From an uncultured Acidobacteriota bacterium (GTDB taxonomy: Bacteria > Acidobacteriota > Polarisedimenticolia > Gp22-AA2), in the NCBI GenBank assembly GCA_964384905.1, contig CAYLND010000001.1, positions 9,915 to 73,914 of the forward strand: a stretch of DNA of 64,000 bases, written 5' to 3'. Within the stretch, counting starts at the first letter, position 1. Every line of letters starts with the position of its first letter. The notes under the pieces are model-generated. The model was not told where the DNA came from and did not search any database. It saw only the letters and a program-made list of their open reading frames with translations. The translations under genes were made by a program, and so were the position numbers. Of this stretch, positions 34,501-55,898 are shown one piece after another.

Positions 34501-34976
34501 TCGAGGACAACCTCGTCCCCAACATCCGCCTCTACAAGATCCACGAGCGGCGCAAGCCGTCACTGCTCGATTACATCACCCCGGACCGCCTCGATCTGAT
34601 CATCAACGTGCCGGCCGGGTACGATCGGCAGGAGCTCACGGATGGATACATCATCCGCCGGCGGGCGACCGACGTGGGAATCCCCTTGATCACGAATATC
34701 CAGCTGGCGGAGCTGTTCGTGAAATCGATCGCGATCAAGGGTTGGGACGATCTGAAGGCCGAGCCGTACGATCGCTACGTGGGCGCAGTCTCCGCGGTCG
34801 AGCGCGCGGGCCCGGCGATCCTGGGTGGCATGCCGATCCGGTCGAAGGGTCGTTCGATCGTCCGTCGCGAGGGCAGCGACGCTCCGGCCGGGAGCGAAGC
34901 CGATGACGCGGGAACCGAAGGGAAACCGCGGCGTCAGGCGACGCCCCGGTCCCCCCGTCAGGCCGTCTTCGCCTGA
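31596..34976 (+). CDS. carB: Carbamoyl-phosphate synthase large subunit (with ~50-aa charged C-terminal extension)
   Basis: Two ATP-grasp repeats, oligomerisation and MGS-like domains; start MRILVLGSGALKIGEAGEFDYSG. Confidence 0.9.
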   Translation: MRILVLGSGALKIGEAGEFDYSGSQAIKALKEEGVEVWLINPNIATIQTSPGLADRIFLLPVTPRFVTQVIRLGRPDGILLSFGGQTALNCGLALHRQGVLRRHGVRVLGTPIAAVEATEDRELFARRLRAIKVRVPRSGAAHDVSGALRQAERIGYPVMMRTAFTLGGRGSGIARNEAELRRMATEAFTTSPQVLIEEDLTGWKEIEYEVVRDSADNCITVCNMENVDPLGVHTGESIVVAPSQTLTDEEYFLLRALSFKVIRHFGIVGECNIQFALDPRSDDYRVIEVNARLSRSSALASKATGYPLARIAAKLALGHRLPDLKNSMNDTTTACFEPALDYLVVKMPKWDLEKFRGASHFIGSEMKSVGEVMAVGRSFEEALQKGCRMLGDGVRGLVGNDFNIRQSLQDVSRPTPRRVFALAQALAVGGTVAELSGRTGIDPWFLEKMNRICAVRERVLAARRSSGGRLPIDLLREAKEAGFSDEQIAHDAGGSAEDVARRRRAEGLVPVVKQIDTLAAEWPVRTNYLYLTYHGTEDDLMPGESERKVLVLGSGAYRIGSSVEFDWCCVSATAALRRLGYSPVVINCNPETVSTDYDTGHTLYFEELTFERLHDVWTKERPLGILLAFGGQIPNNHALACAAAGIPVFGTQPRDIDRAEDRHKFSSLLDRLGVPQPEWAEVTSRREAARFARRVGYPVLVRPSYVLSGAAMRIASDATALAAALEGAAEVSRKHPVVISKFIEGAKELEADAVALRGRMLAVAVTEHVENAGVHSGDATVVLPPQKIYLETVRRVRGITAQLARALSISGPFNVQFLAVDNEVMVIECNLRASRSFPFISKVCGVDFVDLATRAMMGAEVRPVPASLLDLDYVAVKAPQFSFSRIKGADPALRVEMASTGEVACLGEDLPEAFLKAILAAGFRLPERRQALLTIGSLRDKARFLPSARALHDMGFTLYATRHTSRFLEDNLVPNIRLYKIHERRKPSLLDYITPDRLDLIINVPAGYDRQELTDGYIIRRRATDVGIPLITNIQLAELFVKSIAIKGWDDLKAEPYDRYVGAVSAVERAGPAILGGMPIRSKGRSIVRREGSDAPAGSEADDAGTEGKPRRQATPRSPRQAVFA

Positions 34977-36100
34977 CCCTCGACCAGATCGATGACGCCC
35001 CGCTCGCGCAGCTTCTTGAAGGCGCGCAGCGCGTCCACTTCGCGCAGCGGGCTGATGCTGATGATCGAGCGCAGATCCCAGGAGCCGTTGACGCGGCTCA
35101 CGAGGAAGCCCTCCGCGGGGCTCAGATCCAGGCTCGTCAGGGCCTCGAGAGGCTTCTTCAGGACCGGGATCTTCTTGGGCGGCAGGTAGTGCCTGTAGGC
35201 CTTGTCGATGAAATGCTCTTCCGCCACCTGGAGGAGGGCGTTCATCTCCGGATTCTTCCCCGCGCTCCGCCGCGCCTTCTCCAGGATCGTCAGGGCTCCT
35301 TCCGAGTCGCCGCTCTTGATCAGCTCCTTGGCCGCCTCCATCAGCGCCTGCGGACTGTCCGCCGGGGGGCGCGCCGCCACCGGGGTGTCGCCGCGGGTGA
35401 CTTCGAGGTAGCCCTTTTGCACCATGACATAGAGAACCTGACACACGTTGTATTCGGACGCATGTGCCTCGAGGATGATGTCCGCGAGCGTGCGGCGTCC
35501 GTCCACCAGGTCGTACATTCTCTTGGGGAAAGTCCTGGAAGCGATGTCGCGGGGCAGGGCGCTGGCCGTGCGTCGCAGCAGGACGCCATTGTGAGGGAGG
35601 ACCTGGCGGATCCGCTTCGACGTGTCGTAACGTCGCAATCCCTCCATCAGGACATCCTCGACCCGGATGGAAATCAGGACCTGGTCGCCCGGGGGCAGCT
35701 CGTTCTCGTGGAATTCGAACTCGGCCTCCGTCCACAGGAAAAGGGAATAGATCGTCTCTTCCGCCTTCATCCGCAGGATCTCGCCGACCTTTGCCTCGGA
35801 CACGAGGCCTTTCTTGACCAGGATGCGTCCGAGCATCACCTTGGTCTGCGCCTGCAGGTCGAACGCGTCCTTGAGCTGCTGCTCGGTGATGATCCCCTCG
35901 CTCAGCATGAACTGGCCCAGGTATTCGCGCGTGTCGTTGCTGGAGGAGCCGATGATCGCGCCGTCCTTGAAATGGATTTTCTTGCGGAGAGGGTTGTTAT
36001 GGAGCGAGAGGATGCCGGTCTTCTTCCCCCCTCCGGCCCATTGCAGAAGGTCGGGGAGGGACATCGTCTTGAGATTGCCGGTCAGCCCCGTGCCGGGCAT
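34958..36100 (-). CDS. DUF4388 domain protein (N-terminal LPDLLQ receiver-like module) of unknown function
   Basis: MSLPDLLQW...GILSL motif characteristic of DUF4388; start at Met giving 381 aa. Confidence 0.45.
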   Translation of the reverse strand: MPGTGLTGNLKTMSLPDLLQWAGGGKKTGILSLHNNPLRKKIHFKDGAIIGSSSNDTREYLGQFMLSEGIITEQQLKDAFDLQAQTKVMLGRILVKKGLVSEAKVGEILRMKAEETIYSLFLWTEAEFEFHENELPPGDQVLISIRVEDVLMEGLRRYDTSKRIRQVLPHNGVLLRRTASALPRDIASRTFPKRMYDLVDGRRTLADIILEAHASEYNVCQVLYVMVQKGYLEVTRGDTPVAARPPADSPQALMEAAKELIKSGDSEGALTILEKARRSAGKNPEMNALLQVAEEHFIDKAYRHYLPPKKIPVLKKPLEALTSLDLSPAEGFLVSRVNGSWDLRSIISISPLREVDALRAFKKLRERGVIDLVEGQAKTA

Positions 36101-36213
36101 CGGTCCTCGCTGGGTACGCCCCGGAGTGTTTGACGAAACGAACCTTCTGCCCCGCCGAAGTGTCATACTTCTGACGGCCCGCCGGCGGGAGCCCCGGAGA
36201 CCCTCGTGAATAT

Positions 36214-37089
36214 ATGGACCGGTCTCGGCGGATTCAACCGCAGCGATCGACGACACCGATCGCCTCGCCGTGGCGGCAGGACAGCCGGCGCGCCCTCGCG
36301 TTTCTGAAGCATACGCGTCATGAGACACCCGAACGAGGGCGCGAGATCATGGTAAGAGGCGACCCGTCTTCCGATCGCCGGCGGCTTCTCGAGACGTATC
36401 GTGATCCCCTGTTCGTAAGGAGGCATGACCCCGACAGACGGGGCAACAGGTATCTCACCGACAGAAGGTGGCGCGTCATCCGCGCGGCCCTCGGCCGCCT
36501 GGCGGTGGGGAGGGGTGGTGGTCGGTATCTCGAAATCGGATGCGGGGACGGAACCGGGCTCGACCAGGTGGCGAGCGCCGGCCTCGGCTTCGCGGAAATC
36601 GTCGGCGTCGACATCCTGATGGAGCGCAGCGACCGGGCCTCCGCGCGCCGACCCGACGTCCACGTGATCTGCGCCGATGCGACCTGTCTTCCGTTCTCTT
36701 CAGGATCGTTCGACTATCTGGTCCAGTGCATGCTCCTGACCTCGGTCCTCTCGAGCCGGTCCCGGGTGCAGGTGGCTCGCGAGATCGTGCGGGTGATCCG
36801 CCCGGGCGGACACTTTCTCTCCCTCGACCTGCGGTATCCGGCTCTGCCGCGCCGGGGGCGAATCGGTCTGGGACTGGGCCGTCTGAGGCGCCTCTTCTCC
36901 GGAATGTCCCTGGTGACTTCGGACACGCACGTGATCCTGCCTCCGCTGGCCAGACTGCTCGCGGGCAGGGCGCCTATCTGCGATCGGCTGGCTGCCATCG
37001 CCGTGCTGCGGGCCTACAGGCTTGCGGTCTTCGTCCGGCCTGACGTCGATCACCCTCTCAGAGACGGCGAGGCGCGCAGCGGTTCTTGA
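36214..37089 (+). CDS. Class I SAM-dependent methyltransferase (start may be internal Met at 36349)
   Basis: LEIGCGDG motif I and downstream motifs II/III. Confidence 0.5.
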   Translation: MDRSRRIQPQRSTTPIASPWRQDSRRALAFLKHTRHETPERGREIMVRGDPSSDRRRLLETYRDPLFVRRHDPDRRGNRYLTDRRWRVIRAALGRLAVGRGGGRYLEIGCGDGTGLDQVASAGLGFAEIVGVDILMERSDRASARRPDVHVICADATCLPFSSGSFDYLVQCMLLTSVLSSRSRVQVAREIVRVIRPGGHFLSLDLRYPALPRRGRIGLGLGRLRRLFSGMSLVTSDTHVILPPLARLLAGRAPICDRLAAIAVLRAYRLAVFVRPDVDHPLRDGEARSGS

Positions 37090-38041
37090 GGTGCGCCAGG
37101 GCGTGCACGACGACAGCGGGCGCGAGCGAGACCGCCATCAGCCCGAGCCACTCCCATCCGCGCAGGAGGCCTCGATAGTGCCACAGGAGACGGCGCGTCG
37201 CGCGGCCGTGGCCGGAGACCAGGACGCCCCGCGCCGCTCGCAGCATGCTCCGGCGTCCGTAACGCCGCGCCGCGATGGCCATCGCCGGCCGCGCGGCCTG
37301 CCGGCAGGTGGCCTCCACCTTCGCGAGCGCGGCGGCCATGCTGGGGATCATCCTCGCGGCCTGATTCGTCATGTTGCCGGTGTGCCGCCGGAGACGGACG
37401 AGCGCCTGATCGATGTAGCCGATCGGCCGGCGCACGTAGAGGCGGCTGAAGTATTCGAAGTCTTCGGCACCCCAGAGCGCCTCGTCGAAGTATCCAGCCT
37501 CGTCCAGCACCTCGCGCCGGGCGCAGAGACCGGAGGGAGCGATGGAATAGCCGGGGAGAAGGATCTGACCGAGGGGATCGTCGAGGATGACCTCCTCGGC
37601 TCCGAAGATCCCCCGAGGGATGAAGGGAGGACCGGCGCCACGGCCGGTGAAGTAGCGCAGGTTGGCGAGGACGAACGCCAGGTCGGGTCGACGCTCGTGG
37701 AACCGCACGGCGCGCTCCACCAGCTGCGGCTCGAGAAGGTCGTCCGCGTCGAGCAACACGATCCATCGTCCACGCGCCGCTCGCAGTCCGCGATTGCGGG
37801 TCGCCGCCAGACCGCCGTGCACCACCCGCAGGAGTCGCACCGGAGCGCTGAACGTCTCGACCCGGGCCGTGGTGTCGTCCTCCGAGCCGTCATCGACGAC
37901 GAGGACTTCCAGGTCCCGGAACGTCTGGTCCAGGGCGCTTCGGATCGAATCGGAAATGAACTGGGCGGCGTTGTAGGCGGGAATGAGCACCGTGACAGCG
38001 GGAGCGGTCGCGGCGACGGAGCCCCAGGACGGAGGCGTCAC
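37058..38041 (-). CDS. Glycosyltransferase family 2 (GT-A, DxD)
   Basis: VTVLIPAYNAAQFI...VVDDGSEDDT...LLDADD; GTG start with GGAGAG RBS, GTGA overlap with Wzx stop. Confidence 0.75.
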   Translation of the reverse strand: MTPPSWGSVAATAPAVTVLIPAYNAAQFISDSIRSALDQTFRDLEVLVVDDGSEDDTTARVETFSAPVRLLRVVHGGLAATRNRGLRAARGRWIVLLDADDLLEPQLVERAVRFHERRPDLAFVLANLRYFTGRGAGPPFIPRGIFGAEEVILDDPLGQILLPGYSIAPSGLCARREVLDEAGYFDEALWGAEDFEYFSRLYVRRPIGYIDQALVRLRRHTGNMTNQAARMIPSMAAALAKVEATCRQAARPAMAIAARRYGRRSMLRAARGVLVSGHGRATRRLLWHYRGLLRGWEWLGLMAVSLAPAVVVHALAHLKNRCAPRRL

Positions 38042-39369
38042 GGGAACTCTCCGCCGGCCAGGCGGTCGCGCGAGCGACCACCGCTCGCCAACCCGCGCAG
38101 CGTGCCGATGACCAGCGCGCGGTCGGCCGCCCGAGGCACGAGCAGCTCCGATGCGGTGGTTCCCGTGAGACGGCGATAGAAGCGAATCGCAACGACGGTG
38201 CTGAGCGCGTAAGCGATGGTGCTCGCGATCGCGGCGCCGCTTGCCCCGTACGGCGGGATCAGCAGGACGTCGAGGACCACCGTGGCGGAGAGGGAGATCC
38301 AGGAGACCATGCTGACCACTCCGGGACGGTTCCGAGCGCCGAAGTCGGCGCTCAGTATCTTGGCCACGGACAGCGCGACGACGCCCGGGAGCAGGAGAAG
38401 GAGCGGGCGCAGTGACGGCCCGAACGGCGCGCCGTACAGCAGTGTCAGGAGGGGGCTGCCGCCGCCGGCCAAAACCAACGCTCCGAGAAGCGACAGTGGG
38501 AACGCCACCCGCGACACGACGCGCGTCGTCTCGCTCGTCCCCCCCCGGGAGCTCGCGAGACGGGGCATCATGACCACCGAAATGCAGGTCGACAGAATCC
38601 ATACGGTCTCGGCGAGGCTGACGGCGGCCGAATACAGGCCCAGCGAGGCAGCCCCGGCGAGCCCGTTGACGAACAGCATGTCCAGGCGATAGTTCAGAAG
38701 CTCCGCCAGCCAGCCAATATGGGCCCGCAGGCCGTAATGCAGAGCGAGACGCGGGTACGTCGGGTCGAAGGTCAATCGGCGGCCGATGGAAGGCCATCCG
38801 AGAACGAATCCTCCCAGGACGCTGCAGTACGAGGCTCCGACGAACAGCGCGCAGAACAGGCGGACGTCCCCGCCCGCGATCAACCCACCCGCGGCGAGCA
38901 GGACGAGGATCGAGCCGCGCTCGATCAGGTTCAGGATGTTGTAGAGACCGTAATTCTGAAGACCCAGCAACGTGTGGCGCAGCATCGAAAGAGCGAGAGC
39001 GGGCGGAATGCTCCAGGCCGCGAGGGCGACGTAGGACGAGGTGCGAGAATCCCAGGCGCCGGAGAAGTACAGGAGCTCGAACAGCAGCGTCGAGGCCAGG
39101 CCCAGGGGAAGGAGCATCGCGAGCGAGGTTCCGAGCGCTGTGGCGGCGTCCCGCTCGCGCCGCGCGACATAGAAGGCGTTCGCGGGTCCGACGCCCAGGG
39201 TGAGTACGTTGACCGCGAGCGTGGGCACGAGCAGCGCCATGACGTACACGCCCTTCCCTTCGGGACCCAGAAGACGCGCCGTCAGAATCCCGGTGAGAAG
39301 GAGAATCGCATTCCCAAGGACCGTGGTTCCGATGTTCCCCAGGATGGCACGGGCGAGGCTCACGTTCAC
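38038..39369 (-). CDS. wzx: Wzx-type oligosaccharide flippase (MOP/polysaccharide biosynthesis protein family)
   Basis: ~12 TM, 443 aa, characteristic N- and C-terminal PST-family helices. Confidence 0.75.
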   Translation of the reverse strand: MNVSLARAILGNIGTTVLGNAILLLTGILTARLLGPEGKGVYVMALLVPTLAVNVLTLGVGPANAFYVARRERDAATALGTSLAMLLPLGLASTLLFELLYFSGAWDSRTSSYVALAAWSIPPALALSMLRHTLLGLQNYGLYNILNLIERGSILVLLAAGGLIAGGDVRLFCALFVGASYCSVLGGFVLGWPSIGRRLTFDPTYPRLALHYGLRAHIGWLAELLNYRLDMLFVNGLAGAASLGLYSAAVSLAETVWILSTCISVVMMPRLASSRGGTSETTRVVSRVAFPLSLLGALVLAGGGSPLLTLLYGAPFGPSLRPLLLLLPGVVALSVAKILSADFGARNRPGVVSMVSWISLSATVVLDVLLIPPYGASGAAIASTIAYALSTVVAIRFYRRLTGTTASELLVPRAADRALVIGTLRGLASGGRSRDRLAGGEFP

Positions 39370-40538
39370 GAAAACGCGGAGTGACCCGTCAGGGCCTCGC
39401 CGAGAATGAGGGTGTGGATGTCGTGGGTTCCTTCGTAGGTGTAAACCGCCTCCAGGTTACAGAAGTGGCGGCCCACCTGATACTCATCCGTGATGCCGTT
39501 GGCCCCCAGGATGTCCCGGGCCAGGCGGGCGCACTCGCGCGCCATCCAGACGTTGTTTCTCTTGCCCATCGAGATCTGCGCCGGCGTGGCTTTGCCCTCG
39601 TCCTTCATCCTTCCAAGACGCAGCGCGAGGAGCTGTGCCTTGGTGATCTCGCTGGCCATCCAGACGAGCTTTTCCTGCTGCAGCTGGAAGGCCGCGATCG
39701 GTTTCTGGAACACGACGCGGGAGCCGGCGTAGGACAGGGCCTCGTCGAAGACCGCCAGGGCCGAGCCGATCCCGCCCCACGCGATCCCATAGCGGGCCTG
39801 ATTGAGACACATCAATGCACATTTCAGCCCCGAAGCCTTCGGCAGGAGACTCGCCGAGGAGACCGCGCAATCCTGAAGAGTGATCTCCGAGGTAACCGAG
39901 GCGCGCAGGGAGAACTTGCCAGCGTGATCGCGGGTGGTGAATCCGGGGGTCCCGCGCTCCACAAGGAATCCGCGGATGATCCCGTCCTCGCACCTGGCCC
40001 AGATCAGGGCGACGTCGGCGATCGAGCCCGAGGTGATCCAGGCCTTGGAGCCGTTCAGGACGTAATGATCGCCCCGGCGGCTCGCGCGCGTGCGCATGGA
40101 GCCGGGGTCGCTGCCGGCGTCGGCCTCCGTCAGACCGAAACAGCCGATGATCTCGCCACGCGCCATCGCCGGCAGCCAGCGCTCCTTCTGCGCGTCCGAG
40201 CCAAACGTCAGGATCGGGTACATGCAGAGGGCCCCCTGGACCGAGACGAAGGATCGGAGCCCGCTGTCACCGCGCTCCAGCTCCTGCATGACGAGACCGT
40301 ACGCGACATGGTTCAGCCCGGCGCACCCGAATCCGTGGAGATTGGCGCCCAGGAGTCCCAGACGCGCCATCTCGGCCACCAGATCGCTCGGAAAGCTGCC
40401 CTCCCGGAAATGACGCTCGATGATCGGCAGGACGCGGTCATCGACAAAACGTCGGACCATGTCGCGCGTCAGACGCTCCTCCTCGTTCAGCAGGGCGTCG
40501 ACGCTCAGGAAATCGAGAGCCTGGAAGGGTCGCGTCAT
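39366..40538 (-). CDS. Acyl-CoA dehydrogenase (glutaryl-CoA dehydrogenase-like)
   Basis: ACAD N/M/C domains, catalytic-base region YEGT.DIH; ATGA overlap with wzx start. Confidence 0.8.
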   Translation of the reverse strand: MTRPFQALDFLSVDALLNEEERLTRDMVRRFVDDRVLPIIERHFREGSFPSDLVAEMARLGLLGANLHGFGCAGLNHVAYGLVMQELERGDSGLRSFVSVQGALCMYPILTFGSDAQKERWLPAMARGEIIGCFGLTEADAGSDPGSMRTRASRRGDHYVLNGSKAWITSGSIADVALIWARCEDGIIRGFLVERGTPGFTTRDHAGKFSLRASVTSEITLQDCAVSSASLLPKASGLKCALMCLNQARYGIAWGGIGSALAVFDEALSYAGSRVVFQKPIAAFQLQQEKLVWMASEITKAQLLALRLGRMKDEGKATPAQISMGKRNNVWMARECARLARDILGANGITDEYQVGRHFCNLEAVYTYEGTHDIHTLILGEALTGHSAFS

Positions 40539-40539
40539 T

Positions 40540-41742
40540 TCAGGAAGTCGGCGCTTCGAGAAGGAGGGCGATCCCTTGCCCCCCGCTGATGCAGAGGGTG
40601 GACAGCCCCCGCCGCGCGCGCCGCCGCCGCATCTCGTGGAGGAGGGTCACGGTGATGCGGGCGCCGGTGGCGCCGAGCGGATGACCGAGGGCGATGGCGC
40701 CGCCGTTCACGTTGAGCCGCGCACGGTCGAATCCGAGCTCGCGGTCGCAGGCCAGGACCTGCGCCGCAAAGGCCTCGTTCAGCTCGATCAAGTCGATCTC
40801 GTCCAGCCGGAGACGCGTGCGCTCGAGGAGCCGGCGAATCGCGGGCACGGGTCCAAGGCCCATCACGGCAGGGTCGACTCCGGATGAGGTCGCCGCCACG
40901 ATACGGGCCTGGGGTTGGATCGCGAGTCGCCGCGCGGCCGCCCCGGAAAGGACGATCATGGCGGCGGCTCCGTCCACCAGCCCGCTCGACGATCCGGCGT
41001 GAACCGTTCCATCCTTCTTGAAGACGGGGGGAAGCTTCGCGAGCGATTCGGGTGTGACCCCATCGCGTGGGTGCTCGTCCTCGGCCACGAGAACGGGCCC
41101 CTTGGGTCCGGGGATCTCCACGGGAACGATTTCGTCCTGGAACGCCCCGGCTTTGCGCGCGCGCTCGCAGCGCTGCTGGGACTCGGCCGCGAAGGCGTCC
41201 TGCTCGGCGCGGCTGATGCGATAGCGCTCCGCCAGGGTCTCGGCGGTGTCTCCCATGACCTGGCCGCAGAGCGGGCAGAGAAAACCGTCGCGATACATCG
41301 CGTCCGTCAGACGCTGATGCCCGAGGCGGTAACCGAACCGCGCTCCCTCGAGAAGGTACGGGACGCGACTCATGGACTCGGCCCCGCCGACCAGGACGAC
41401 CTCCCGTTCACCCGCCAGGACGCTCTGATGGGCGGACAAGATCGCGCGCAGGCTGGACCCGCAGGCCATATTGATCGTGTAGGCGGGCGATGCGTCCGGG
41501 ACGCCGGCCCCGTGGGCGATCTGACGTGCCGGGTTGGGCCCGACTCCGGCGGGCCGCGCATGGCCCATGATGGTCTCTTCGACGTCCGAAGGCCGGACGT
41601 GCGCGCGCGTCATGGCGCCGCGCGCCGCGATCACACCCAGCTCGGGGGCGGTGAGCGCGCTGAGCGCCCCCCCGAACTTGCCCAGCGGGGTGCGCACGGC
41701 TCCCGCGATGAACACGTCCTGGAACTCTGCCATGGGCCCCAA
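40540..41742 (-). CDS. Acetyl-CoA C-acyltransferase (thiolase II)
   Basis: NMACGSSL active Cys, [16 protein letters not shown]-terminal CISGGQG. Confidence 0.85.
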
Positions 41743-41966
41743 CTCCTTGCGCGGCGCGCGCTGCGTCTCGTTATACCACAGGCACGCAGGAGGCTCAACG
41801 CGCCCGGGAGGCGGCGCCGCGCAGCGCGCCCCTGGCCGGGGCGGTCACATCGGCCTTCCCTCGGATGTCGGTCTGTGCCAAGATCAGCGGTGGCTGGCGC
41901 GGCTTTCAGTGAATCGGAACGCCGGGCGCGCTGCTCCGCGGGCCCCTTCGCCCCGCCCCATAGCGC

Positions 41967-43217
41967 ATGCGCATTCTCTACCTGACGCAGTACTTCCCGC
42001 CGGAGATGGGAGCGCCCCAGGCGCGCATCCCCGAGCTGATGGTGCAGATGGTCCGGCTCGGGCACCGGGTCACCATCCTCACGGCGATGCCGAATTATCC
42101 GCACGGACGGATCTTCCGGGGCTACCGCTGGCGGCCCGTCATGCGCGAGACGTTCCAGGGGATGCGCGTCGTGCGCACCTGGATCTATCCGACCATCGCC
42201 CTGGGCTTTCTCAGGCGCACCGCCAGCGCGCTGTCGTTCGCCGTGTCGAGCGCGGTCCTGGGGGCGGGGCTCGTGGGGGCCCAGGACGTGCTTCTGGTGG
42301 AATCGCCCCCGTTGTTCCTGGCGCTCACCGCGGTTCTTCTCAAGCGCCTGCTGCGGTGCCCGTACGTCGCGGTGGTCGCCGATCTGTGGCCGGAGGTGGC
42401 GATCGAGACCGGCATGCTCACCAACCCGCGCGCGATCCGCGTCGCCCGTTGGCTCGAGAGGCTCCTCTACGAGCGGTCTCTCGTCGTGGTGACCCAGACC
42501 CCGGGCCAGGTCGCGGACATCCGTTCGCGCTTTCCCGGCGTGAGGGTGGAGATGGTCAGTGGAGGCGTGGACAGCTCCAGGTTCTCCCCCGAACGGCGCA
42601 ACGAGGCCGTGCGCCGCGAGTTCGACGTGGCGGGGAGAGTCGGGGTCCTGTTTTCGGGGCTGCACGGGTTCGCGCAGGGATTGGATGCGGTCCTCGACGC
42701 GGCCGATCGACTTCGCGGGCGCGCGGACATCCGCTTCGTGCTGATCGGAAACGGGGCGGTCAAGCAGCACCTGGTCGGCCGGGCGGCGCAGCTGAAGCTT
42801 CCCAATCTGGACTTCCATGATCCGGTTCCGCGCGAGCGCATGCCCGCCATCGCGGCCTCGATGGATATCGCTCTCGCGCCGCTGCGTCGCGGAGTGCCCC
42901 GTGCGACGATCCCGACCAAGATTTACGAGGCGATGGCCTCGGGGCTGCCGATCGTCGTCGCCGGGGACGGCGAGGCGCACGATCTGGTGCGGGACCAGCG
43001 GATCGGCCTGGCGGTCCCCGCGGAAGCGGGACGCGAGATGGCCGCCGCCATCGCCCGCCTGGCGGACGAGGGCGTGCTGCGCTCCGAGTGTGCGTCGAAC
43101 GCTCTTCGGCTGGCGCGCGCCCGGTACGATCGGAGCGCCATCGCGCTCGTCCTCAATCGGCTCCTCAACGAGATCCGTCCGAGCTCACACCCACGCGATG
43201 CCGCCCCGCATCGGTAG
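41967..43217 (+). CDS. Glycosyltransferase family 4 (WcaI-like)
   Basis: MRILYLTQYFPPE N-terminus typical of WcaI-type GT4; GT-B C-domain with E..7..E region. Confidence 0.75.
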   Translation: MRILYLTQYFPPEMGAPQARIPELMVQMVRLGHRVTILTAMPNYPHGRIFRGYRWRPVMRETFQGMRVVRTWIYPTIALGFLRRTASALSFAVSSAVLGAGLVGAQDVLLVESPPLFLALTAVLLKRLLRCPYVAVVADLWPEVAIETGMLTNPRAIRVARWLERLLYERSLVVVTQTPGQVADIRSRFPGVRVEMVSGGVDSSRFSPERRNEAVRREFDVAGRVGVLFSGLHGFAQGLDAVLDAADRLRGRADIRFVLIGNGAVKQHLVGRAAQLKLPNLDFHDPVPRERMPAIAASMDIALAPLRRGVPRATIPTKIYEAMASGLPIVVAGDGEAHDLVRDQRIGLAVPAEAGREMAAAIARLADEGVLRSECASNALRLARARYDRSAIALVLNRLLNEIRPSSHPRDAAPHR

Positions 43218-45399
43218 GCTGCGTCTTGCTTATGAGCTGTGGTCGCAGTACGGAGCGGCCAATGTCGGATATCGCGTCCTGCACGAGGCTCTGCGCCGCT
43301 CCGGCTGGCTGAGGCGGCGGTTTCCGGCGGTCGGCTGGGAGGCGCGCCCGCCGCACACCTTCTGCGCGCCACACGTGCCCACCGCTCCCGGCGAGTATCG
43401 TGATTTTCGCGAGCGGTCCCCTGGTCGATTCTTCTTCGCTCCGGGCCGGCTGCCGGTCCTGCCGTCCGATTGGGCCGAGGACGCCGTCCGCGCCGGCGGC
43501 GCCGTTTTGTCCGGAAGGCCCCGCCTGGCTGGGCATCGGGCCGCCGATCTCGGGTTCCCGTTCGATTGGCTCGTGAATCCGCACACCGGCGTGCGAGCGG
43601 ACTCGCGGGCGCACTGGAGCGACCTCGACGGCTTCGAGAACACGCCGGGGGACGTCCGTGTCCTGTGGGAGCCGGCGCGGTTCGGCTGGGTCTACGCGCT
43701 CGGCAGGGCCTGCGCCGCGGTCCGCGGCGGCCGGTACGGCGAAGCCTTCTGGACTCTCTTGGAGTCCTGGCGAGCCGCGAATCCGCCGAACCTCGGTCCC
43801 CACTGGCAGGACGGGCAGGAGTGCGCCCTGCGCCTGCAGGCCCTCTGTTTCGGGCTGTACGCCTTCTGGAGCGATCCCTCGACGTCTCCCGAGCGGGTCC
43901 AGAGACTGGCGCAGACCGTCGCGCTGCACGCGGAACGGATCGAGGGGAATCTCGGTTTCGCGCGCACCCAGATGGGGAACCACGCGGTGAGCGAAGCCGC
44001 GGCGTTGTACACCGCGGCGGTCCTGTTCCCCGAGTTCTCGCGCGCCTCGCCCTGGAGACGTTTGGGGCTGCGGGTGCTCGATGACGAGGCCCGCCTGCAC
44101 AACCGGAGCGATGGCACGTACGCGCAGCACTCGATGAACTACCATCGCCTCATGCTCCACGAGTACCTGTGGGTCCTGCGCCTCGCGGAGCTGAACGGCG
44201 ATCGACTGGCTCCCGAGACCGTCGAGAAGCTGGATCGCGCCACGGAGTTCCTGTACCTGCTCCAGGACGAGCGGAGCGGCCGGCTCCCGAACTACGGTCC
44301 GAACGACGGGTCCCTCGTCCTGCCGCTCGACGGCTGCGACTTCCTGGACTACCGTCCGGTCATCGGAGCCATGCATCACCAGATTCACCGCGAGAGGCTG
44401 TACGCCCCCGGACCGTGGGACGAGGACCTCCTCTGGCTGTTCGGTCCCGCGTCTCACGAGGCGCCGCGCGTGGCACGACCGCGGCCGAGCGCGCGGCTGG
44501 ATCAAGGCGGCTATTACACGCTGCGCGGCCTGGAGACCTGGGGCATGGTGCGCTGTCACACCTTCCGCAACAGGCCGAATCAGTCCGACTTGCTGCACCT
44601 GGACCTGTGGTGGCGCGGCCAGAATGTCCTGCGTGATTCGGGGTCGTACCTGTACAACGCCCCCGAGCCTTGGCGCGACTGGTTCACTTCGACCGCGGCG
44701 CACAACACGGTCCAGATCGCCGGTCAGGACCAGATGGTGAAGGTGCGTCGCTTCAGTTGGGCGTACCTCGCGCGGGCCCGCGTGCGCGTGGTCCGTTGCG
44801 CGGGCGTCGACGGGTTCGACTATTTCGAAGGTGAGCACGAAGGATATCAGCGGCTTCCTGGTCGCATCACGCACCGGAGGGCGGTCGCGCGGATCGGTGA
44901 CCGCGCCTGGCTGGTGGTGGACGACGTGCTCGGGACGGGTCGATCGACGATTCGCGCGTTCTGGCACCTCCTCGACGCCCCCTGGACATCCGAGACGCAC
45001 CGCCTGTGCCTCGACACCGCGTCGGGGCCGGTGGCGTTGAGTTTTCTGACCCCGGGCGCCTCCTCCACGCTGCACGTGGCGCGCGGCGAGGAGGGGCGCC
45101 AGCCGCTGGGATGGGAATCGCAGCGCTACGGCGAGCGCGTGCCGGCCCCGGCCGCGTGTCTCGAGCTGATCGAGGCGCTCCTGCCTCAGCGCCTCGTGAG
45201 CCTCGTCTGCCTCGGTCGCGGCGGGGCGATCGAATCCGATCCCGCTGGCCGAATCCTGCGCTGGACGGACACGCCGGCCTTCTCGACCACCGTGACACTG
45301 TCGCCCACGGGAGGGGACGACAGCCCGGTGGTCAGGGAGATTCTGGCCGGGGAACGACGATGGATCGTGGAGCGGCGACCCCAGGAGCACAGCGCGTGA
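43198..45399 (+). CDS. Heparinase II/III-like protein (alginate-lyase-like N-domain + Hepar_II_III C-domain)
   Basis: 733-aa product, toroid N-domain and C-terminal HLDLWW...GSY region typical of the family. Confidence 0.55.
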   Translation: MPPRIGRLRLAYELWSQYGAANVGYRVLHEALRRSGWLRRRFPAVGWEARPPHTFCAPHVPTAPGEYRDFRERSPGRFFFAPGRLPVLPSDWAEDAVRAGGAVLSGRPRLAGHRAADLGFPFDWLVNPHTGVRADSRAHWSDLDGFENTPGDVRVLWEPARFGWVYALGRACAAVRGGRYGEAFWTLLESWRAANPPNLGPHWQDGQECALRLQALCFGLYAFWSDPSTSPERVQRLAQTVALHAERIEGNLGFARTQMGNHAVSEAAALYTAAVLFPEFSRASPWRRLGLRVLDDEARLHNRSDGTYAQHSMNYHRLMLHEYLWVLRLAELNGDRLAPETVEKLDRATEFLYLLQDERSGRLPNYGPNDGSLVLPLDGCDFLDYRPVIGAMHHQIHRERLYAPGPWDEDLLWLFGPASHEAPRVARPRPSARLDQGGYYTLRGLETWGMVRCHTFRNRPNQSDLLHLDLWWRGQNVLRDSGSYLYNAPEPWRDWFTSTAAHNTVQIAGQDQMVKVRRFSWAYLARARVRVVRCAGVDGFDYFEGEHEGYQRLPGRITHRRAVARIGDRAWLVVDDVLGTGRSTIRAFWHLLDAPWTSETHRLCLDTASGPVALSFLTPGASSTLHVARGEEGRQPLGWESQRYGERVPAPAACLELIEALLPQRLVSLVCLGRGGAIESDPAGRILRWTDTPAFSTTVTLSPTGGDDSPVVREILAGERRWIVERRPQEHSA

Positions 45400-46088
45400 G
45401 CGTCCGCGAGCAGTTTGACGTCGAGCTTCTCGGTCCGCGGCACGTGGATGAGGTCGCGACTCTGCACCTGCAGGCGATGCGGGGCTACTTCCTGTCCGAG
45501 CTCGGGGAACGTGTGCTGCGCCGGTTCTACGCGGAGTTCTGCCGGCATCCTTACGATTACGGCGTCGTGGCCATTGGTCGCACCACGGGGCGGCTGGCGG
45601 CGTTCGTCGTGGGCACCAGTGACTCCGCCGCCCACTTCAGGTCGTTCTATCGGCGCAACGCGCTGCTGCTCGCCGGTGAGGTGGCGATCGCCGCGGTCCG
45701 TCGGGCGGCGGTCCGGCGGGGACTGCTCCGTCGCCTGCGCCACCTCCTGTTCGCCGGTCTCGCGGTGGTGCGATGGCATCGACCCGTCGCGAGCGCGCCG
45801 GGGCCCCCGCGCGGTCCGGACCGGGTCTGTCCGGTTCGGCTCCTGTCGATCGCCGTGGCGCCGGACTGCCAGGGCACGGGCGTATCCGGACTGGTCGCGC
45901 TGCGTTTCGAAGAGGTGCTGCGGCAGGCCGGGTTCACGCGCGTCGGATTGTCGGTGCACGGGGACAACGACCGGGCGATCGCCTTCTATCGGAAATCGGG
46001 CTGGCAGGAGACCTATCGATCCGAGGCGGGGCTCTGGTTCGAGAAGTCTATCGGAGCGCCGCGCGCGACCGTCCCGCGCTCGATGTAG
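45396..46088 (+). CDS. GNAT family N-acetyltransferase (GTG start overlapping upstream stop)
   Basis: CQGTGVSGLV acetyl-CoA P-loop-like motif, GWQE C-terminal motif. Confidence 0.5.
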   Translation: MSVREQFDVELLGPRHVDEVATLHLQAMRGYFLSELGERVLRRFYAEFCRHPYDYGVVAIGRTTGRLAAFVVGTSDSAAHFRSFYRRNALLLAGEVAIAAVRRAAVRRGLLRRLRHLLFAGLAVVRWHRPVASAPGPPRGPDRVCPVRLLSIAVAPDCQGTGVSGLVALRFEEVLRQAGFTRVGLSVHGDNDRAIAFYRKSGWQETYRSEAGLWFEKSIGAPRATVPRSM

Positions 46089-47486
46089 TCGATCTCGGAC
46101 AGTCGTCCCTTCAGGATCCGGTCGCTGCCCATCCGCGCGTACAAGAGCATCTCGCGCCAGCGCCGCATCCACGTGGTCGCGAAACGGGCGGTCAGCATGG
46201 AGCGGACGGGCAGGTAATCGTACTCGTAGAGGTTGAAGAGAAGGTTTAGCAGGGCCATGGTCCGGCGGGTGCGCGCCGTCACGCGGTAGCGCACCCGCTT
46301 GCTGATCGCGAGGTGCGAGAAGAGATCGAGCGCCATGCACTGGCGGAACACGAAGGTCGTCGTGTGGATCTCCAGCGGATGCTCTGCCGGTGGCGCTGTC
46401 GGCGGGATCTCGCTGACCGCCCGCCGGTACACGTCGATCTCGAAAACCTGCGCGTCGTCGCCCGCGCTCACGACGAAGCGCGCGGGGCGCCCCTTGAACC
46501 GCCGGCGGACGAGCCGGGGGACGGCCGCGAGGAACTTCGAGAAATACGCACGGACCTCCTGCTCGCGGACGCGCGAACGGGCCTCTGTCGCGTAGAACCG
46601 CTCCAGGACGGACGTCTTCTCGTCACGATAGCGCTCGAGATGCACGTCGCGTCGGTCGAAGAAGTCCATGGCGGTCGGAGAGAGCTGGAAACCGCGATCG
46701 GTGGACCAGGAATCACCCGCCAGCATGATCACGATCTGTGGTGAGGCGAGGCCGCGCTCCCGGAAATGGGTCTCCACCATGCGGGGGGTCTGAATGGTGC
46801 CATTGAGAGAGTAAACGTCCTTGTGAAGGTAGCAGTGATTGCTGGCGAACGGGATGGCGTGGCGCGCGCCCGTGGCGCGCGCGAAGGCCGCGAAGCTCTC
46901 GATGTAGCGCTCCAGATCGTCCACGGGTGCGGTCGGATCGTCGATCACATCATAGGAGAGCCGGCTGTTGGCCGAGCTGTGGCTCCGGAACAGGAAATCG
47001 ATGGACGGGTGCCGCTTCAGGATCTGACGCAGCGGGCCCCCCATGAACTTGGCGTCGTTCGCATCCAGCAGGGTGATCCCGGCGCACTCCACGACCAGCG
47101 CGCTGTCCAGGAACGGGCTGAACTGGTAGGAGGTGATCCGGAAGTCGTCCCCCAGCGGGACCGATCCGGCATGGGGGATCTCGCGCACGTTGCGGAAGCC
47201 GAGGCGGTGCAGATCACGCGGGATGCGGTCGTGATGCCCCCGGGGTACCAGGATCGGAGTCTCGCGCGGAAACCGTCGCAGGGACACTCCGTGGAAATGG
47301 TCCCAGTGGATGTGCGTGAGATAGATGGCGTCGGGACGCAGGCTTCGCAGGAGGTCGTCGGGGACGGGCGGGTAGTTCCACCAGGAGCGCCAGTAGCAGC
47401 TGCCGACGATCCACGGATCGATGAGAAGCGACACGCCGGCACCCCTCACCAGGAGACCGGCGTGGGACACGATGGTGAATTCCACG
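46013..47486 (-). CDS. MBL-fold metallo-hydrolase with ~240-aa C-terminal extension
   Basis: THIHWDHFHG (HxHxDH) and downstream His/Asp ligands; GTG start preceded by GAGG. Confidence 0.55.
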
Positions 47487-47535
47487 TTGACGACGCCTCG
47501 ACCCGGGTGCCTTTCGCGCGCGAACGCTCCGCCAG

Positions 47536-48921
47536 TCACAGGGGCGACAGTCGCCCCTCCGTGACCTCGGAGACCACGAAACGCAGCTTGCCGCTCGGTG
47601 ATCGGGGAAGGCGATCGACGTACTGGAACTCGACCGCCGCGAGATCGCCGACCCGTTTTCGGAACTCCTCGCGCAACCGGCTCTCGTCCCGCTCCTGATA
47701 CCGCGCGTGCCGCACGATCCGGACGGTGAGGCGTCCGGGCTCGCGCTGGACGATCTGTGCCTCTCGAATCGCCATCATGTCCTTGAAGATGTGATCCATG
47801 CGCCCCAGGAGCGCCCCGTTCTTCAGGATCACATAGTCCTCCTTGCGACCGTCCACGCCGGCCACGCGGCGCCCGGGAAGCCCGCAGACGCAGGGGTCGG
47901 TCGCCGCCTCGACGCGATCCCCGACATCGTAGCGGAGAAGCGGAGCGGCCGGGTTGGAAAGATTCGTGCCCACGACGCGGTGATCGCGCTCGCCCTCGCC
48001 GGGGAGGAACTCGACGGCCGCGAAGTCCTCGTCCACGTGCATCCCGCCCCTCGGACACTGAAAGCAATTGGCCACGGCCTCCGCCATCCCGTAGTGCTGG
48101 ATCGGCGCCTGACCGAGTGCCTCCTGGATCACGACCGCCTGATGGTGCATCAGGTTCTCGGCGCCGGTCGTCACCCAGGCCGGGACGTAGCCGAGGGTCT
48201 CGCCCTGCTCCAGAAGGAGCGAGGCGAACAGAGACATCAGGGAGGGGTAGCCGTGCAGCCAGGGTGGCCTGGTCCGTCGGAGCAGGGCGACATAGTGTCT
48301 GAACGTATCGGGTGAGAGGTGGTAGGCGCTGAACAGGATCTGTCGGCCCGGCCGGTTGAATCTCCAGAACGGCGGCGTCGTCTGTCGCAGCGGCACGACC
48401 GAGCGTCCGCCGAAATATCCGCACCATGTGCCCATCTGCAGTCCATGGAGCCGGTAATAGCGCCACCAGATGGCGTATTGCTCCTGCAGCGCGAGGCGGG
48501 TGGTGACCAGGCGCAGCCCCGCGCCCGTGGTGCCGCTGGTGTGGATCGGCACCCGCAGCCCGGGAGGCACGCGCTCGGAGATCAGCTCGGTCGAGCGCTC
48601 CTGGACGGTCGCCTTGTCGAGAACAGGGAGAGTCCGCAGATCCTCCAGCGTGCGGATCGCGGCCGGGTCGATCCCATGGTCGCGAAACATCCCGCGATAG
48701 TAAGGCACCGACTCGGCGCAGTGTCGGACAAAGGCGCGAAGCCTGGCATCACGAAACGCCTGCAGGCGATCCGGCCCCCAGGTGAGCCTCTGCTCCGCCT
48801 CGCGCAGGAGCGCCGGGAACCTCCCTCCGAAGCGGTCCCGCTGGATTCTCCAGCCTTGCAGACTGCACGCCAGATTCTGGAGGGCGATCGGAAGACCCAG
48901 GTAGAGCGATTCGGCCTCCAC
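47536..48921 (-). CDS. Phenylacetate-CoA ligase-like adenylate-forming enzyme (CapK / F390-synthetase-related family)
   Basis: TSGTTG adenylation motif, PaaK-like C-domain; start either GTG 48921 (TAGTG overlap) or ATG 49017. Confidence 0.6.
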   Translation of the reverse strand: MEAESLYLGLPIALQNLACSLQGWRIQRDRFGGRFPALLREAEQRLTWGPDRLQAFRDARLRAFVRHCAESVPYYRGMFRDHGIDPAAIRTLEDLRTLPVLDKATVQERSTELISERVPPGLRVPIHTSGTTGAGLRLVTTRLALQEQYAIWWRYYRLHGLQMGTWCGYFGGRSVVPLRQTTPPFWRFNRPGRQILFSAYHLSPDTFRHYVALLRRTRPPWLHGYPSLMSLFASLLLEQGETLGYVPAWVTTGAENLMHHQAVVIQEALGQAPIQHYGMAEAVANCFQCPRGGMHVDEDFAAVEFLPGEGERDHRVVGTNLSNPAAPLLRYDVGDRVEAATDPCVCGLPGRRVAGVDGRKEDYVILKNGALLGRMDHIFKDMMAIREAQIVQREPGRLTVRIVRHARYQERDESRLREEFRKRVGDLAAVEFQYVDRLPRSPSGKLRFVVSEVTEGRLSPL

Positions 48922-50399: not shown

Positions 50400-50400
50400 C

Positions 50401-51260
50401 CTACTTGACGGCGACGATCATGAGCCACAATCCGTGCCGGCGGAACAGCGTCCTGATCAGCCAGCGCGGCCACAGCGCCCTGGCGAGGGTCAGGATGGGG
50501 CCCCGGTGGTTCAGGCCGACTTCCCCCAGAAGCAGATCGCTCGAGGTCAGGAGGGTGTGGACATCCCGTACCTCCGAAAACTCCGAGAACAGCCGCCGCG
50601 CCTCGTCTGGCGTGTACGCCTTGGTGCCGGGGTTCTCCAGATGATGAGCGTAGATGTCCGCCAGCGAGCGGGAGGGTCGCCCCGCCAGGAGGGCATACCG
50701 CAGCCACAGCATGTATCCGACCATGGAATAGGTATGGTAGACCATCACGCGGGCGACACCTCCCGGTCGAAGCACGCGACGGACTTCTCGAATCGCCGTC
50801 GGCGTGTCCGGCGTGGCATGCAGCACCCCCCAGGAATAGACGAGGTCGAAGGAGTCGTCGTCGAACGGCAGATGCTCGGCGTCGGTCACCATCAGATTCG
50901 AGGACAAGCCGTGCATTCTCAGCCGCTCCCGCGTGAATCCAATGGCCCGGGGCGTCAGGTCGACACCCGTGAGGGTCCGAGGGTTTGCTTTGGCCCACTC
51001 GAGATGATCGGCGCCCATCCCCACGCCGATCTCCAGGACATCGCGTTCCGCCCCATCGTGGAACCGGGCGAATTCGAAAATGTAACTTTCGAACGCATAG
51101 CGCGCCGAGCGCTGGGCCTCGAGCCTCTCCTGGAGCGAGTCGCCGCGCGCGTAGACCTCCCCGCAGGAGTGTTTCTGAAAATACTCGCGCGTGGCGCGTT
51201 TGAGGGCCGTGTCCGTGTCCTCGACGTGTCGGTCCACCGCGCGGTCGCCAGACGTCATCA
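50401..51260 (-). CDS. Class I SAM-dependent methyltransferase (Methyltransf_11-like)
   Basis: VLEIGVGMG motif I; GGAGAG RBS 6 nt upstream of ATGATG. Confidence 0.6.
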
Positions 51261-51475
51261 TGATGACCTGCTCTCCATTCCTCGCTGCCGAGCCACCAAT
51301 GTACCGCAGCGGACCGCCGTGATCTACAACGTTTTTAGTGCGCGGCATGGACGCTCGATGTCCCGCAGGGGTCCGAAGACCGCGCCCGGCCGGGGTCCTC
51401 GGGCCGGCGCTTCTCAGCGGCGGCGCTTCTATGCGATCATGAATTGTCCGTGTCGTTCGGCCGGGAGGTTCCCAT

Positions 51476-53721: not shown

Positions 53722-53740
53722 CCCGCCTGCGGGGGCCGAC

Positions 53741-55894: not shown

Positions 55895-55898
55895 CGAC

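Follow-up and report, generated by a model that had tools for sequence, protein, structure and literature searches.

A glycan-gene cassette probably captured downstream of a housekeeping thiolase–glutaryl-CoA dehydrogenase pair in one Acidobacteriota lineage

Four genes lie on the minus strand between 37058 and 41742 of the window (the whole 64-kb stretch of DNA that was analysed), in the order thiolase, acyl-CoA dehydrogenase (ACAD), Wzx-like flippase and GT2 glycosyltransferase, and their coordinates match the open reading frames. The question raised by this locus is why enzymes of acyl-CoA metabolism are joined directly to glycan genes. The initial annotation, whose four gene identities agree with the Pfam domain scores, had proposed that the locus builds or trims an acyl chain destined for a glycan or glycolipid. 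We consider with good, though not full, confidence that a glycan cassette was instead captured downstream of a housekeeping thiolase–glutaryl-CoA dehydrogenase (GCDH) pair in a single narrow lineage of soil Acidobacteria, with probable read-through and no chemistry shared between the two halves.

The thiolase gene (40540..41733, minus strand), a member of the chromosomal backbone, was assigned to the acetoacetyl-CoA type (class II) from Pfam, TIGR01930 and PDB matches. Its start is likely the ATG at 41733 rather than the TTG at 41742; an NCBI source lists exactly this 397-aa product, and a Shine-Dalgarno-like AAGGAG (41743..41748, minus strand), conserved in the related locus L005, is located 9 nt 5' of the ATG. 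Thiolase_N and Thiolase_C matched at 282 and 162 bits, and the TIGR01930 subfamily at 451.9 bits (cut-off 240.55), whereas every cut-off of the NCBIfam equivalogs (PhaA, BktB, PcaF and FadA) was missed, e.g., PRK05656 with 450 against 688. In the PDB search, the top matches were acetyl-CoA acetyltransferases (428 bits). The class II enzymes of Clostridium and Zoogloea (PDB 4N44 and 1DLU) resemble the window thiolase at 383–428 bits, with both Thiolase_N and Thiolase_C, and their motifs are present, namely the Cys in NMACGSS, the His in GHPLGATG and the Cys in LCISGGQG; the window protein differs from them in having no NCBIfam equivalog assignment. Since TIGR01930 was the only subfamily passed, a short-chain, acetoacetyl-CoA preference is predicted from the ranking of the PDB matches.

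The ACAD gene (39366..40538, minus strand; 390 aa), also of the backbone, is predicted from structure matches and key residues to encode a GCDH. The three ACAD domains (N, middle and C-terminal) were found at 120, 79 and 112 bits, all above the cut-offs. Full-length matches to solved GCDHs reached 394–446 bits (372–446 over all GCDH structures), compared with 256 bits for ACX4, the next best among all other ACADs and acyl-CoA oxidases, and at most 232 bits for the other ACADs. DSGLRS aligns with human DSGYRS, conserving the Arg for the distal carboxylate of the substrate, and YTYEGTHD aligns with human NTYEGTHD, conserving the catalytic Glu; in human numbering we take these residues to be Arg94 and Glu370. 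The three domains, the Arg and the Glu in YEG are shared with human GCDH (PDB 1SIQ) and with TTHA of Thermus thermophilus (PDB 2EBA), and the Tyr preceding the catalytic Glu is conserved as well. With ∼64–66% identity to GCDHs across phyla and with its key residues kept, the protein bears no apparent sign of specialisation. Nothing notable distinguishes it from known GCDHs; the one unusual thing about it is its genomic setting, with a flippase gene lying directly 3'. GCDH would convert glutaryl-CoA into crotonyl-CoA and CO2, and the thiolase would cleave acetoacetyl-CoA into two acetyl-CoA, two steps of the route by which lysine, tryptophan and aromatic compounds are degraded. The two enzymes are thus predicted to form a catabolic pair of one route and not to build fatty chains, which speaks against the acyl-chain proposal.

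The other half of the unit consists of a Wzx-like oligosaccharide flippase of the MOP family (38038..39369, or ..39363, minus strand; 443 aa from GTG 39369, 441 aa from GTG 39363) and a GT2 (37058..38041, minus strand; 327 aa), both assigned to the cassette. The flippase matched Polysacc_synt at 41.2 bits (cut-off 28.2), Polysacc_synt_3 and MurJ also matched, and about 11 hydrophobic segments, within the ∼10–14 expected of such a polytopic protein, were counted in a crude hydropathy scan. The GT2 matched the GT-A domain Glycos_transf_2 (104 bits), contains a DxD-type motif (LLDADD in the translation) and has a single hydrophobic segment near the C-terminus, at residues 297–319. Wzx and GT2 are the constant unit of the cassette, as GT2 follows Wzx at every orthologous locus examined. 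The pair would act on a lipid-linked oligosaccharide, like its orthologues in canonical Wzx/Wzy clusters, and its chemistry would be unrelated to that of thiolase and GCDH.

No intergenic space was found inside the four-gene unit. Of the junctions first described for it, the 1-nt spacer (TGA-A-ATG) is present between thiolase and ACAD and the GTGA overlap between Wzx and GT2, but the sequence contains no ATGA overlap. The ACAD/Wzx junction reads TCGTGAACGTG, which gives a GTGA overlap if Wzx starts at GTG 39369 and a 2-nt spacer if it starts at GTG 39363; the latter start appears more likely, because 15 orthologues with M/V-S-L-A N-termini fit it. Such spacing is unexceptional, as tight junctions are common elsewhere in the 64 kb: in about 10 of 24 same-strand neighbour pairs, a candidate start lies −20 to +4 nt from the upstream stop. 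The junctions of the unit also remain tight in relatives when linked loci are compared.

A promoter-like element, TTGAGC-17 nt-TATAAC (41770..41798, minus strand), with a TG one base 5' of the −10 hexamer, was read from the sequence ∼36 nt 5' of the thiolase ATG. In the window, L005, L006 and L009, its TGTG[G/A]TATAA core and the TTG of its −35 do not vary, while the remaining intergenic region is barely alignable among the four. When TGTGRTATAA was searched for across the 64 kb, even with one mismatch allowed, the site 5' of the thiolase was the sole match. This conservation suggests promoter function. The consensus scan, which looks for sigma-70-type sites and has no validation in Acidobacteriota, missed the element because its last −10 base is C; with the same scan, no promoter-like site was found on the coding strand inside 37058–41742. 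Few promoter-like or terminator-like sites occur inside the unit, and the number of the latter differs from chance by no more than one SD. Given the conserved element 5' of the thiolase and the junctions kept tight in relatives, the four genes are likely co-transcribed. As no intergenic space belongs to the cassette itself, read-through from the thiolase promoter-like element would be its most likely mode of transcription, and ribosomes may terminate and reinitiate at the junctions of 1 nt, 2 nt (or −4) and −4. The single transcript with coupled translation that had been proposed is in this respect plausible, judged from the spacing, the kept junctions and the promoter-like element.

Comparison with relatives placed the linkage in one monophyletic lineage, always at the same chromosomal site. 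Thiolase-GCDH is linked to Wzx-GT2 directly in the window, L005 and L094, and through an intervening GT4 in L006/L007 and L009; L095 and the P0004 contig, both truncated on the upstream side, are consistent with linkage. The GCDHs of the linked lineage (window, L005, L006 and L009) form one clade of 75–84% identity, whose sister is L016. On the 8.4-kb contig of L016, a LolA-like gene is divergent from thiolase, which is followed by GCDH and DUF4388, and glycan genes are missing from both sides. A Wzx-like ORF within ∼7 kb of GCDH was found at 0 of 80 other GCDH loci (GTDB species representatives, searched with a profile built from 120 Wzx homologues). Conversely, thiolase-GCDH linkage is absent at five other loci with orthologous Wzx-GT2, from more distant relatives: three canonical ManC-Wzx-GT2-WecA-BBP2-Wza-Wzc clusters (L011, L012 and L093), another polysaccharide cluster (L008) and a pair that stands alone (L010). 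The empty site in the sister lineage, together with these two sets of loci, argues against the functional link suggested by the initial annotation, and no acyl-CoA enzyme/glycan gene linkage was found beyond the one inherited locus. Synteny in relatives gave a divided answer: some of them share the linkage, so that the outcome named with the initial annotation as refuting it, absence in every relative, did not occur, yet the linkage is restricted to one lineage and one site. Within this lineage, Wzx identity falls to 53–57% while the association persists, and GT4 has been gained or lost between GCDH and Wzx, the new GCDH/GT4 junction keeping a 4-nt overlap. Such persistence through divergence and GT4 gain or loss could reflect selection for co-expression and is a counter-point to capture.

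The edges of the inserted DNA can be followed from the backbone genes. DUF4388/PatA_N (34958..36100, minus strand; Pfam DUF4388) marks the far edge of the cassette. It stands after Wzx-GT2 in all linked loci that reach far enough downstream, directly after GCDH in L016, and after GCDH-glpX-dcd in Thermoanaerobaculia-type loci; in outgroups it is 1.6–2.4 kb downstream of GCDH, the intervening genes being glpX, as verified in L024 and L040, and dcd, as verified in L018. Between DUF4388 and GT2 lies a variable cassette member, a SAM-dependent methyltransferase of 246 aa (36349..37089, plus strand; Methyltransf_11 and Methyltransf_25), which is convergent with GT2 and overlaps its 3' end by 32 nt. 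A 246-aa gene call on L001 maps to the same coordinates, and L005 and L094 carry the gene, which L006, L009 and L095 lack. On the other side of the thiolase, Pfam scans outlined a variable glycan-gene island of ∼15.4 kb (41967..57380) with GT4, heparinase II/III-like, GNAT (∼45396–46088), MBL-fold, a 493-aa unknown with a faint AMP-binding match (E 0.009), DUF362, a methyltransferase, two GT4/GT1, a fused ADH+GFO oxidoreductase and a PMT_2 GT-C. Its counterpart in L006 measures just ∼3.4 kb, and in L016, which has no upstream island, ∼60 nt separate the LolA-like gene from thiolase. The far edge of the island is a backbone gene for a TP_0789/LolA-like protein of ∼1040 aa (57423..60542, plus strand), with a weak Pfam LolA_like match; over its full length it is homologous (34% identity, E 3e-170) to the L016 gene divergent from thiolase, and a TP_0789-like gene (1039 aa) is also found upstream in L006. 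Glycan genes flank thiolase-GCDH on both sides in the linked lineage, which is a further counter-point to capture. Wzy, Wza, Wzc and an initiating phosphoglycosyl transferase were not found in Pfam scans of the ORFs of the 64-kb window.

The arrangement LolA-like/thiolase/GCDH/DUF4388, with the first gene divergent, would represent an old chromosomal backbone. The Wzx-GT2 cassette, with or without GT4 and methyltransferase, would have been inserted between GCDH and DUF4388 in one Polarisedimenticolia-like Acidobacteriota lineage, and the larger glycan-gene island placed on the opposite side of thiolase. The direction of this change, an insertion, is suggested by parsimony from one sister contig and a few outgroups.

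Other explanations start from the same observations. Co-regulation may have been selected without any shared chemistry, surface-glycan genes being expressed when amino-acid or glutarate catabolism is induced, e.g., by a nutrient shift or starvation; the tight junctions kept across the linked lineage, including the 4-nt GCDH/GT4 overlap, and the position of the sole conserved promoter-like element 5' of the thiolase agree with it. However, the linkage has a single origin and a single site, so that simple inheritance may explain why it persists; tight junctions are usual in the genome of the window, and orthologous cassettes elsewhere have other upstream genes or upstream regions of their own (320–350 nt), so that we hold selected co-regulation to be unlikely. 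The operon itself would be wrongly deduced if promoters inside the GCDH coding sequence drove Wzx-GT2 separately. Bacterial coding regions commonly hold internal promoters, and the scan, unvalidated in Acidobacteriota, was limited to sigma-70-type sites; but it gave no coding-strand site in 37058–41742, the lineage-conserved motif occurs only 5' of the thiolase, and the junctions measure 1 nt, 2 nt (or −4) and −4. Separate expression is accordingly very improbable.

The strongest version of the proposal in the initial annotation is a chemical connection, in which a C4/C5 acyl-CoA (acetoacetyl-, crotonyl-, 3-hydroxybutyryl- or glutaryl-CoA) is fed into an acyl substituent of the Wzx-exported glycan. 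Thiolase and GCDH both make or consume C4 acyl-CoA intermediates, and 3-hydroxybutanoyl-substituted polysaccharides are known from other bacteria. The two genes are linked to glycan genes on both sides in this lineage, and the neighbouring island holds the GNAT, an acyl-CoA-dependent transferase, and the 493-aa protein with its faint AMP-binding match. Against this, GCDH looks unspecialised, at ∼64–66% identity to GCDHs across phyla and with intact key residues, and Pfam scans found no hydratase, 3-hydroxyacyl-CoA dehydrogenase or reductase, carrier protein or O-acyltransferase in the four-gene unit; the only candidate is the GNAT of the neighbouring island, 3.7 kb off and on the other strand. 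Moreover, the sister lineage has the thiolase-GCDH pair without any glycan gene, orthologous Wzx-GT2 pairs sit in clusters without enzymes of the thiolase-GCDH type, none of the 80 other GCDH loci has the link, and no paper tying GCDH to polysaccharide clusters was found in a literature search. An acyl substituent of this origin is accordingly very unlikely. Recruitment of thiolase and GCDH into glycan synthesis, as suppliers of 3-hydroxybutyryl-, crotonyl- or glutaryl-CoA for an unusual acyl decoration of the lipid-linked oligosaccharide flipped by the co-translated Wzx, is if anything more doubtful; if true, a polysaccharide operon would for the first time be seen to contain its own acyl-donor pathway of this type.

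Among known systems, the window Wzx-GT2 is orthologous (42–51% identity) to the pairs in the complete Wzx/Wzy-dependent clusters of L011, L012 and L093, but it is detached from such a cluster and joined to a catabolic operon. It resembles mixed-function operons formed by promoter capture in that the cassette, without a promoter region of its own, stands behind conserved core genes, relatives with an empty site exist, and its make-up differs between loci, with GT4 and methyltransferase each found in some of them only. It differs from them in composition, the GC and GC3 of the cassette being indistinguishable from those of the backbone; with composition as the mobile-element signature considered, an old event or an intragenomic rearrangement is suggested, and not a recent gain of foreign DNA.

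On the minus strand of the window (GC ∼69%), ORF and Pfam analysis confirmed four consecutive genes at the place given in the initial annotation: a thiolase (40540-41733; Thiolase_N and Thiolase_C), an acyl-CoA dehydrogenase (39366-40538; all three ACAD domains), a Wzx flippase of the Polysacc_synt/MurJ type (38038 to 39363 or 39369) and a GT2 glycosyltransferase (37058-38041). The 1-nt spacer between the thiolase and the dehydrogenase (TGA-A-ATG) and the GTGA overlap between Wzx and GT2 were both read directly in the sequence. The ATGA overlap claimed for the dehydrogenase/Wzx junction, however, was not found; this junction is TCGTGAACGTG, which forms a GTGA overlap with GTG 39369 or a 2-nt spacer with GTG 39363. 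Given that the N-termini of the 15 Wzx orthologues read M/V-S-L-A, the start at GTG 39363 was favoured, giving a Wzx protein of 441 amino acid residues. For the thiolase, ATG 41733 is the most likely start, 9 nt past an AAGGAG sequence, and the product of 397 amino acid residues is recorded from an NCBI source. The gene arrangement is real and was located correctly, with one junction mis-read. Start candidates within -20 to +4 nt of an upstream stop were found in ∼10 of the 24 same-strand neighbouring pairs of the window, and tight junctions are ordinary for this genome.

The unit has zero intergenic space inside. When the region 36000-42300 was scanned for sigma-70 and terminator consensus sequences, two promoter-like sites were found, neither of them inside the unit on its coding strand, and the three weak terminator-like hairpins (1.9 ± 1.0 expected) were at about the chance rate. 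Upstream of the thiolase, a promoter-like element (TTGAGC-17-TATAAC) was observed, with a TG one base ahead of the -10 hexamer. The core TGTG[G/A]TATAA was identical in the window and in three loci of relatives (L005, L006 and L009), the remaining region being hardly alignable, and a fixed-motif search revealed a single occurrence of this type of motif in the 64 kb. A single operon with coupled translation is a reasonable prediction: one transcript would start ∼30 nt ahead of the thiolase ATG, near 41763, and ribosomes would reinitiate at each of the three genes that follow.

Over its full length, the dehydrogenase aligned with glutaryl-CoA dehydrogenases (GCDH) of solved structure at 394–446 bits, compared with 256 bits for its closest non-GCDH relative and at most 232 bits for ordinary short-/medium-chain acyl-CoA dehydrogenases. 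The Arg of its DSG-x-RS motif and the Glu of its YEGTHD motif aligned with their human GCDH counterparts, which bind the distal carboxylate and serve as the catalytic base, respectively. The thiolase scored above the TIGR01930 subfamily cut-off, and its closest structural relatives were acetyl-CoA acetyltransferases. These identities point to one short catabolic route common to both enzymes, which would cover the stages from glutaryl-CoA through crotonyl-CoA to acetoacetyl-CoA and acetyl-CoA. Long-chain beta-oxidation and lipid building were ruled out, given the GCDH identity of the dehydrogenase and the short-chain type of the thiolase; judged from sequence, the pair is not a system for building or trimming long acyl chains.

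A search with Wzx yielded an orthologue group of 15 proteins (42–100% identity, at least 323 bits), beyond which the scores fell to 199 bits; one orthologue (P0008) is named at its source as Candidatus Polarisedimenticolia bacterium. This name, together with synteny to a Ca. Polarisedimenticolaceae contig, is the basis for placing the locus as Polarisedimenticolia-like. The contigs of 11 orthologues were inspected for the thiolase-dehydrogenase-Wzx linkage, which proved to be conserved in part of the group. It was present in four loci of the window's own species (L001-L004), in L005 (Wzx 82% identical; thiolase-GCDH-Wzx-GT2 with a divergent GT4-heparinase pair), in L094 (68%; GCDH-Wzx-GT2-MT-DUF4388), and in L006/L007 and L009 (54–57%; thiolase-GCDH-GT4-Wzx-GT2-DUF4388, where GCDH and GT4 overlap by GTGA). 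The upstream end was missing from L095 and from the contig of a further homologue (P0004), which were otherwise consistent with a linked locus. The linkage was absent from L010, a Polarisedimenticolia MAG with a lone Wzx-GT2 pair behind a 320-nt intergenic region (Wzx 58%), from L008, with the pair in a different polysaccharide cluster (51%), and from L011, L012 and L093, with the canonical order ManC-Wzx-GT2-WecA-like-BBP2-Wza-Wzc (42–51%). Wzx and GT2 were neighbours in all loci inspected, and the true conserved unit is Wzx-GT2.

A scan of GTDB species representatives with GCDH gave at least 80 loci of 61–66% identity. No window-like Wzx or GT2 was observed within 4 kb of GCDH in any of the 80 loci listed, and a profile from 120 diverse Wzx homologues detected no Wzx-like ORFs in them up to ∼7 kb on each side. 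The decisive locus was L016, one 8.4-kb contig from a Ca. Polarisedimenticolaceae MAG. It carries a 1029-aa protein, a divergent thiolase (65% identity), GCDH (66%) and DUF4388 (38%), in that order. No glycan genes were found on either side of thiolase-GCDH on this contig, and no recognisable genes in the ∼780-nt gap between the two. Over its full length, the 1029-aa protein is homologous (34% identity, E 3e-170) to the TP_0789/LolA-like protein encoded at 57423-60542 (+) in the window. With this homologue and the backbone free of glycan genes, L016 represents an empty site with respect to the Wzx-GT2 cassette and also to the 15-kb glycan-gene island of the window.

In a neighbour-joining GCDH tree, the linked loci formed one clade (75–84% identity) with L016 as its sister, indicating a single origin of the linkage, at one site, followed by inheritance. 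On grounds of parsimony, cassette insertion is preferred to repeated loss. The four unit genes each showed a GC3 of ∼0.84, and GC and GC3 were alike in cassette and backbone. Recent horizontal transfer of the cassette is thus unsupported, and the linkage event would be old or a rearrangement within the genome. In more distant Acidobacteriota loci, including the named Thermoanaerobaculia L018 and L054, DUF4388 lies 1.6–2.4 kb past GCDH, and the genes between them were glpX and dcd (checked in L024, L040 and L018); retention of this order indicates an old, housekeeping neighbourhood.

The best explanation of the locus is that one Polarisedimenticolia-like lineage captured a portable Wzx-GT2 cassette downstream of a housekeeping thiolase-GCDH pair; the components are ordinary and their combination is mildly unusual. 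The initial annotation had suggested that an acyl chain is built or trimmed as part of a lipid-linked or acylated glycan, or that the Wzx substrate is a glycolipid. An acylated glycan of this kind would be a new glycan decoration, but the findings speak against it: thiolase and GCDH form a specific catabolic pair that stands apart from glycan genes in the sister lineage, the orthologous cassette occurs elsewhere without thiolase-GCDH, the four-gene unit contains no accessory enzyme that could transfer an acyl group onto a sugar, and a literature search for GCDH linked with exopolysaccharide clusters gave incidental co-mentions only. A genuine acyl-donor role is very improbable, and just two facts speak for it: glycan genes flank thiolase-GCDH on both sides in the linked lineage, and a GNAT gene lies in the neighbouring island. 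Selected co-regulation of the cassette with thiolase-GCDH is somewhat less improbable, though still unlikely, and both are weaker readings than cassette capture. The locus serves mainly as a caution: in a compact genome of high GC content, 1-nt spacers and overlapping stop and start codons are not, alone, a sign of a shared pathway. Comparison with the empty-site relative points here to a mobile Wzx-GT2 cassette that came to ride on a catabolic operon. Its positive value is smaller: it provides an example of Wzx-GT2 as a portable unit of two genes among Polarisedimenticolia-like Acidobacteriota, and it reveals a hot spot where glycan genes turn over on either side of the conserved thiolase-GCDH backbone.

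The window is otherwise ordinary chromosome (guaB, aroC, tmk, ribF, fusA, queA/C, carAB, mlaED). The 15.4-kb island (41967-57380), which is upstream of the thiolase and divergent from it, contains GT4, a heparinase II/III-like protein, GNAT, an MBL-fold protein, DUF362, a methyltransferase, two further GT4/GT1 genes, a fused ADH+GFO oxidoreductase and a PMT_2 GT-C. The GNAT acetyltransferase (45396-46088, +) and the MBL-fold protein (46013-47500, −) were masked by longer spurious ORFs (45006-46088 and 46013-48466) and were recovered via the frame-specific GC3 signal and the L005 gene order. A 493-aa ORF (47536-49017, −) with a good coding signal (GC3 0.82) matched no Pfam family above threshold and gave only a faint AMP-binding match (E 0.009); a CapK/phenylacetate-CoA-ligase-like enzyme, a type that occurs in capsule clusters, is a possible identity. 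In the 736-aa fusion (53684-55894, +), a zinc-type alcohol dehydrogenase (ADH_N, ADH_zinc_N) is joined to a GFO/IDH/MocA oxidoreductase. Its gene adjoins the PMT_2 (ArnT-like GT-C) gene across a 4-nt spacer, and the product is probably a bi-domain oxidoreductase that modifies sugars for the glycan island. Pfam scans of ORFs across the window detected no Wzy, Wza, Wzc or initiating transferase.

Past the island comes the gene of the LolA-like protein (∼1040 aa in the window, ∼1030–1050 aa overall; also L016 325-3414, −, and L006 1-1077), whose Pfam match to LolA_like/TP_0789-like is weak and which is syntenic with thiolase across Polarisedimenticolia-like lineages. Downstream of GT2, a convergent methyltransferase is followed by the DUF4388/PatA_N gene (34958-36100, −; L016 7149-8393; L018 9758-10888). 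DUF4388 lies downstream of GCDH in several Acidobacteriota classes, directly or past glpX and dcd, and this neighbourhood is unexpectedly old for a domain of unknown function. The 3' ends of GT2 and the methyltransferase share 32 nt (37058-37089), and those of DUF4388 and carB likewise share 19 nt, so that no terminator space is left and transcription from either side must run antisense into the partner gene.

Four independent Logan assemblies (L001-L004) all end ∼170 nt upstream of the GCDH start (first ∼170–176 nt), at about window 40710, in a highly conserved 17-residue coding stretch at the thiolase 3' end, which suggests an assembly-graph branch from paralogous thiolase genes or strain variants. 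Two thiolase variants, >90% identical, were present on different NCBI contigs (75 and 136 kb). Exact copies of the genes occur in the sequencing runs SRR12313479 to SRR12313484. In clusters holding orthologous Wzx-GT2, a Wzy_C domain is fused to or adjoins long TPR regions (L011 1335-4232, L012 2031-4889 and L008 556-3435), an unusual Wzy architecture in proteins of ∼950–965 aa.
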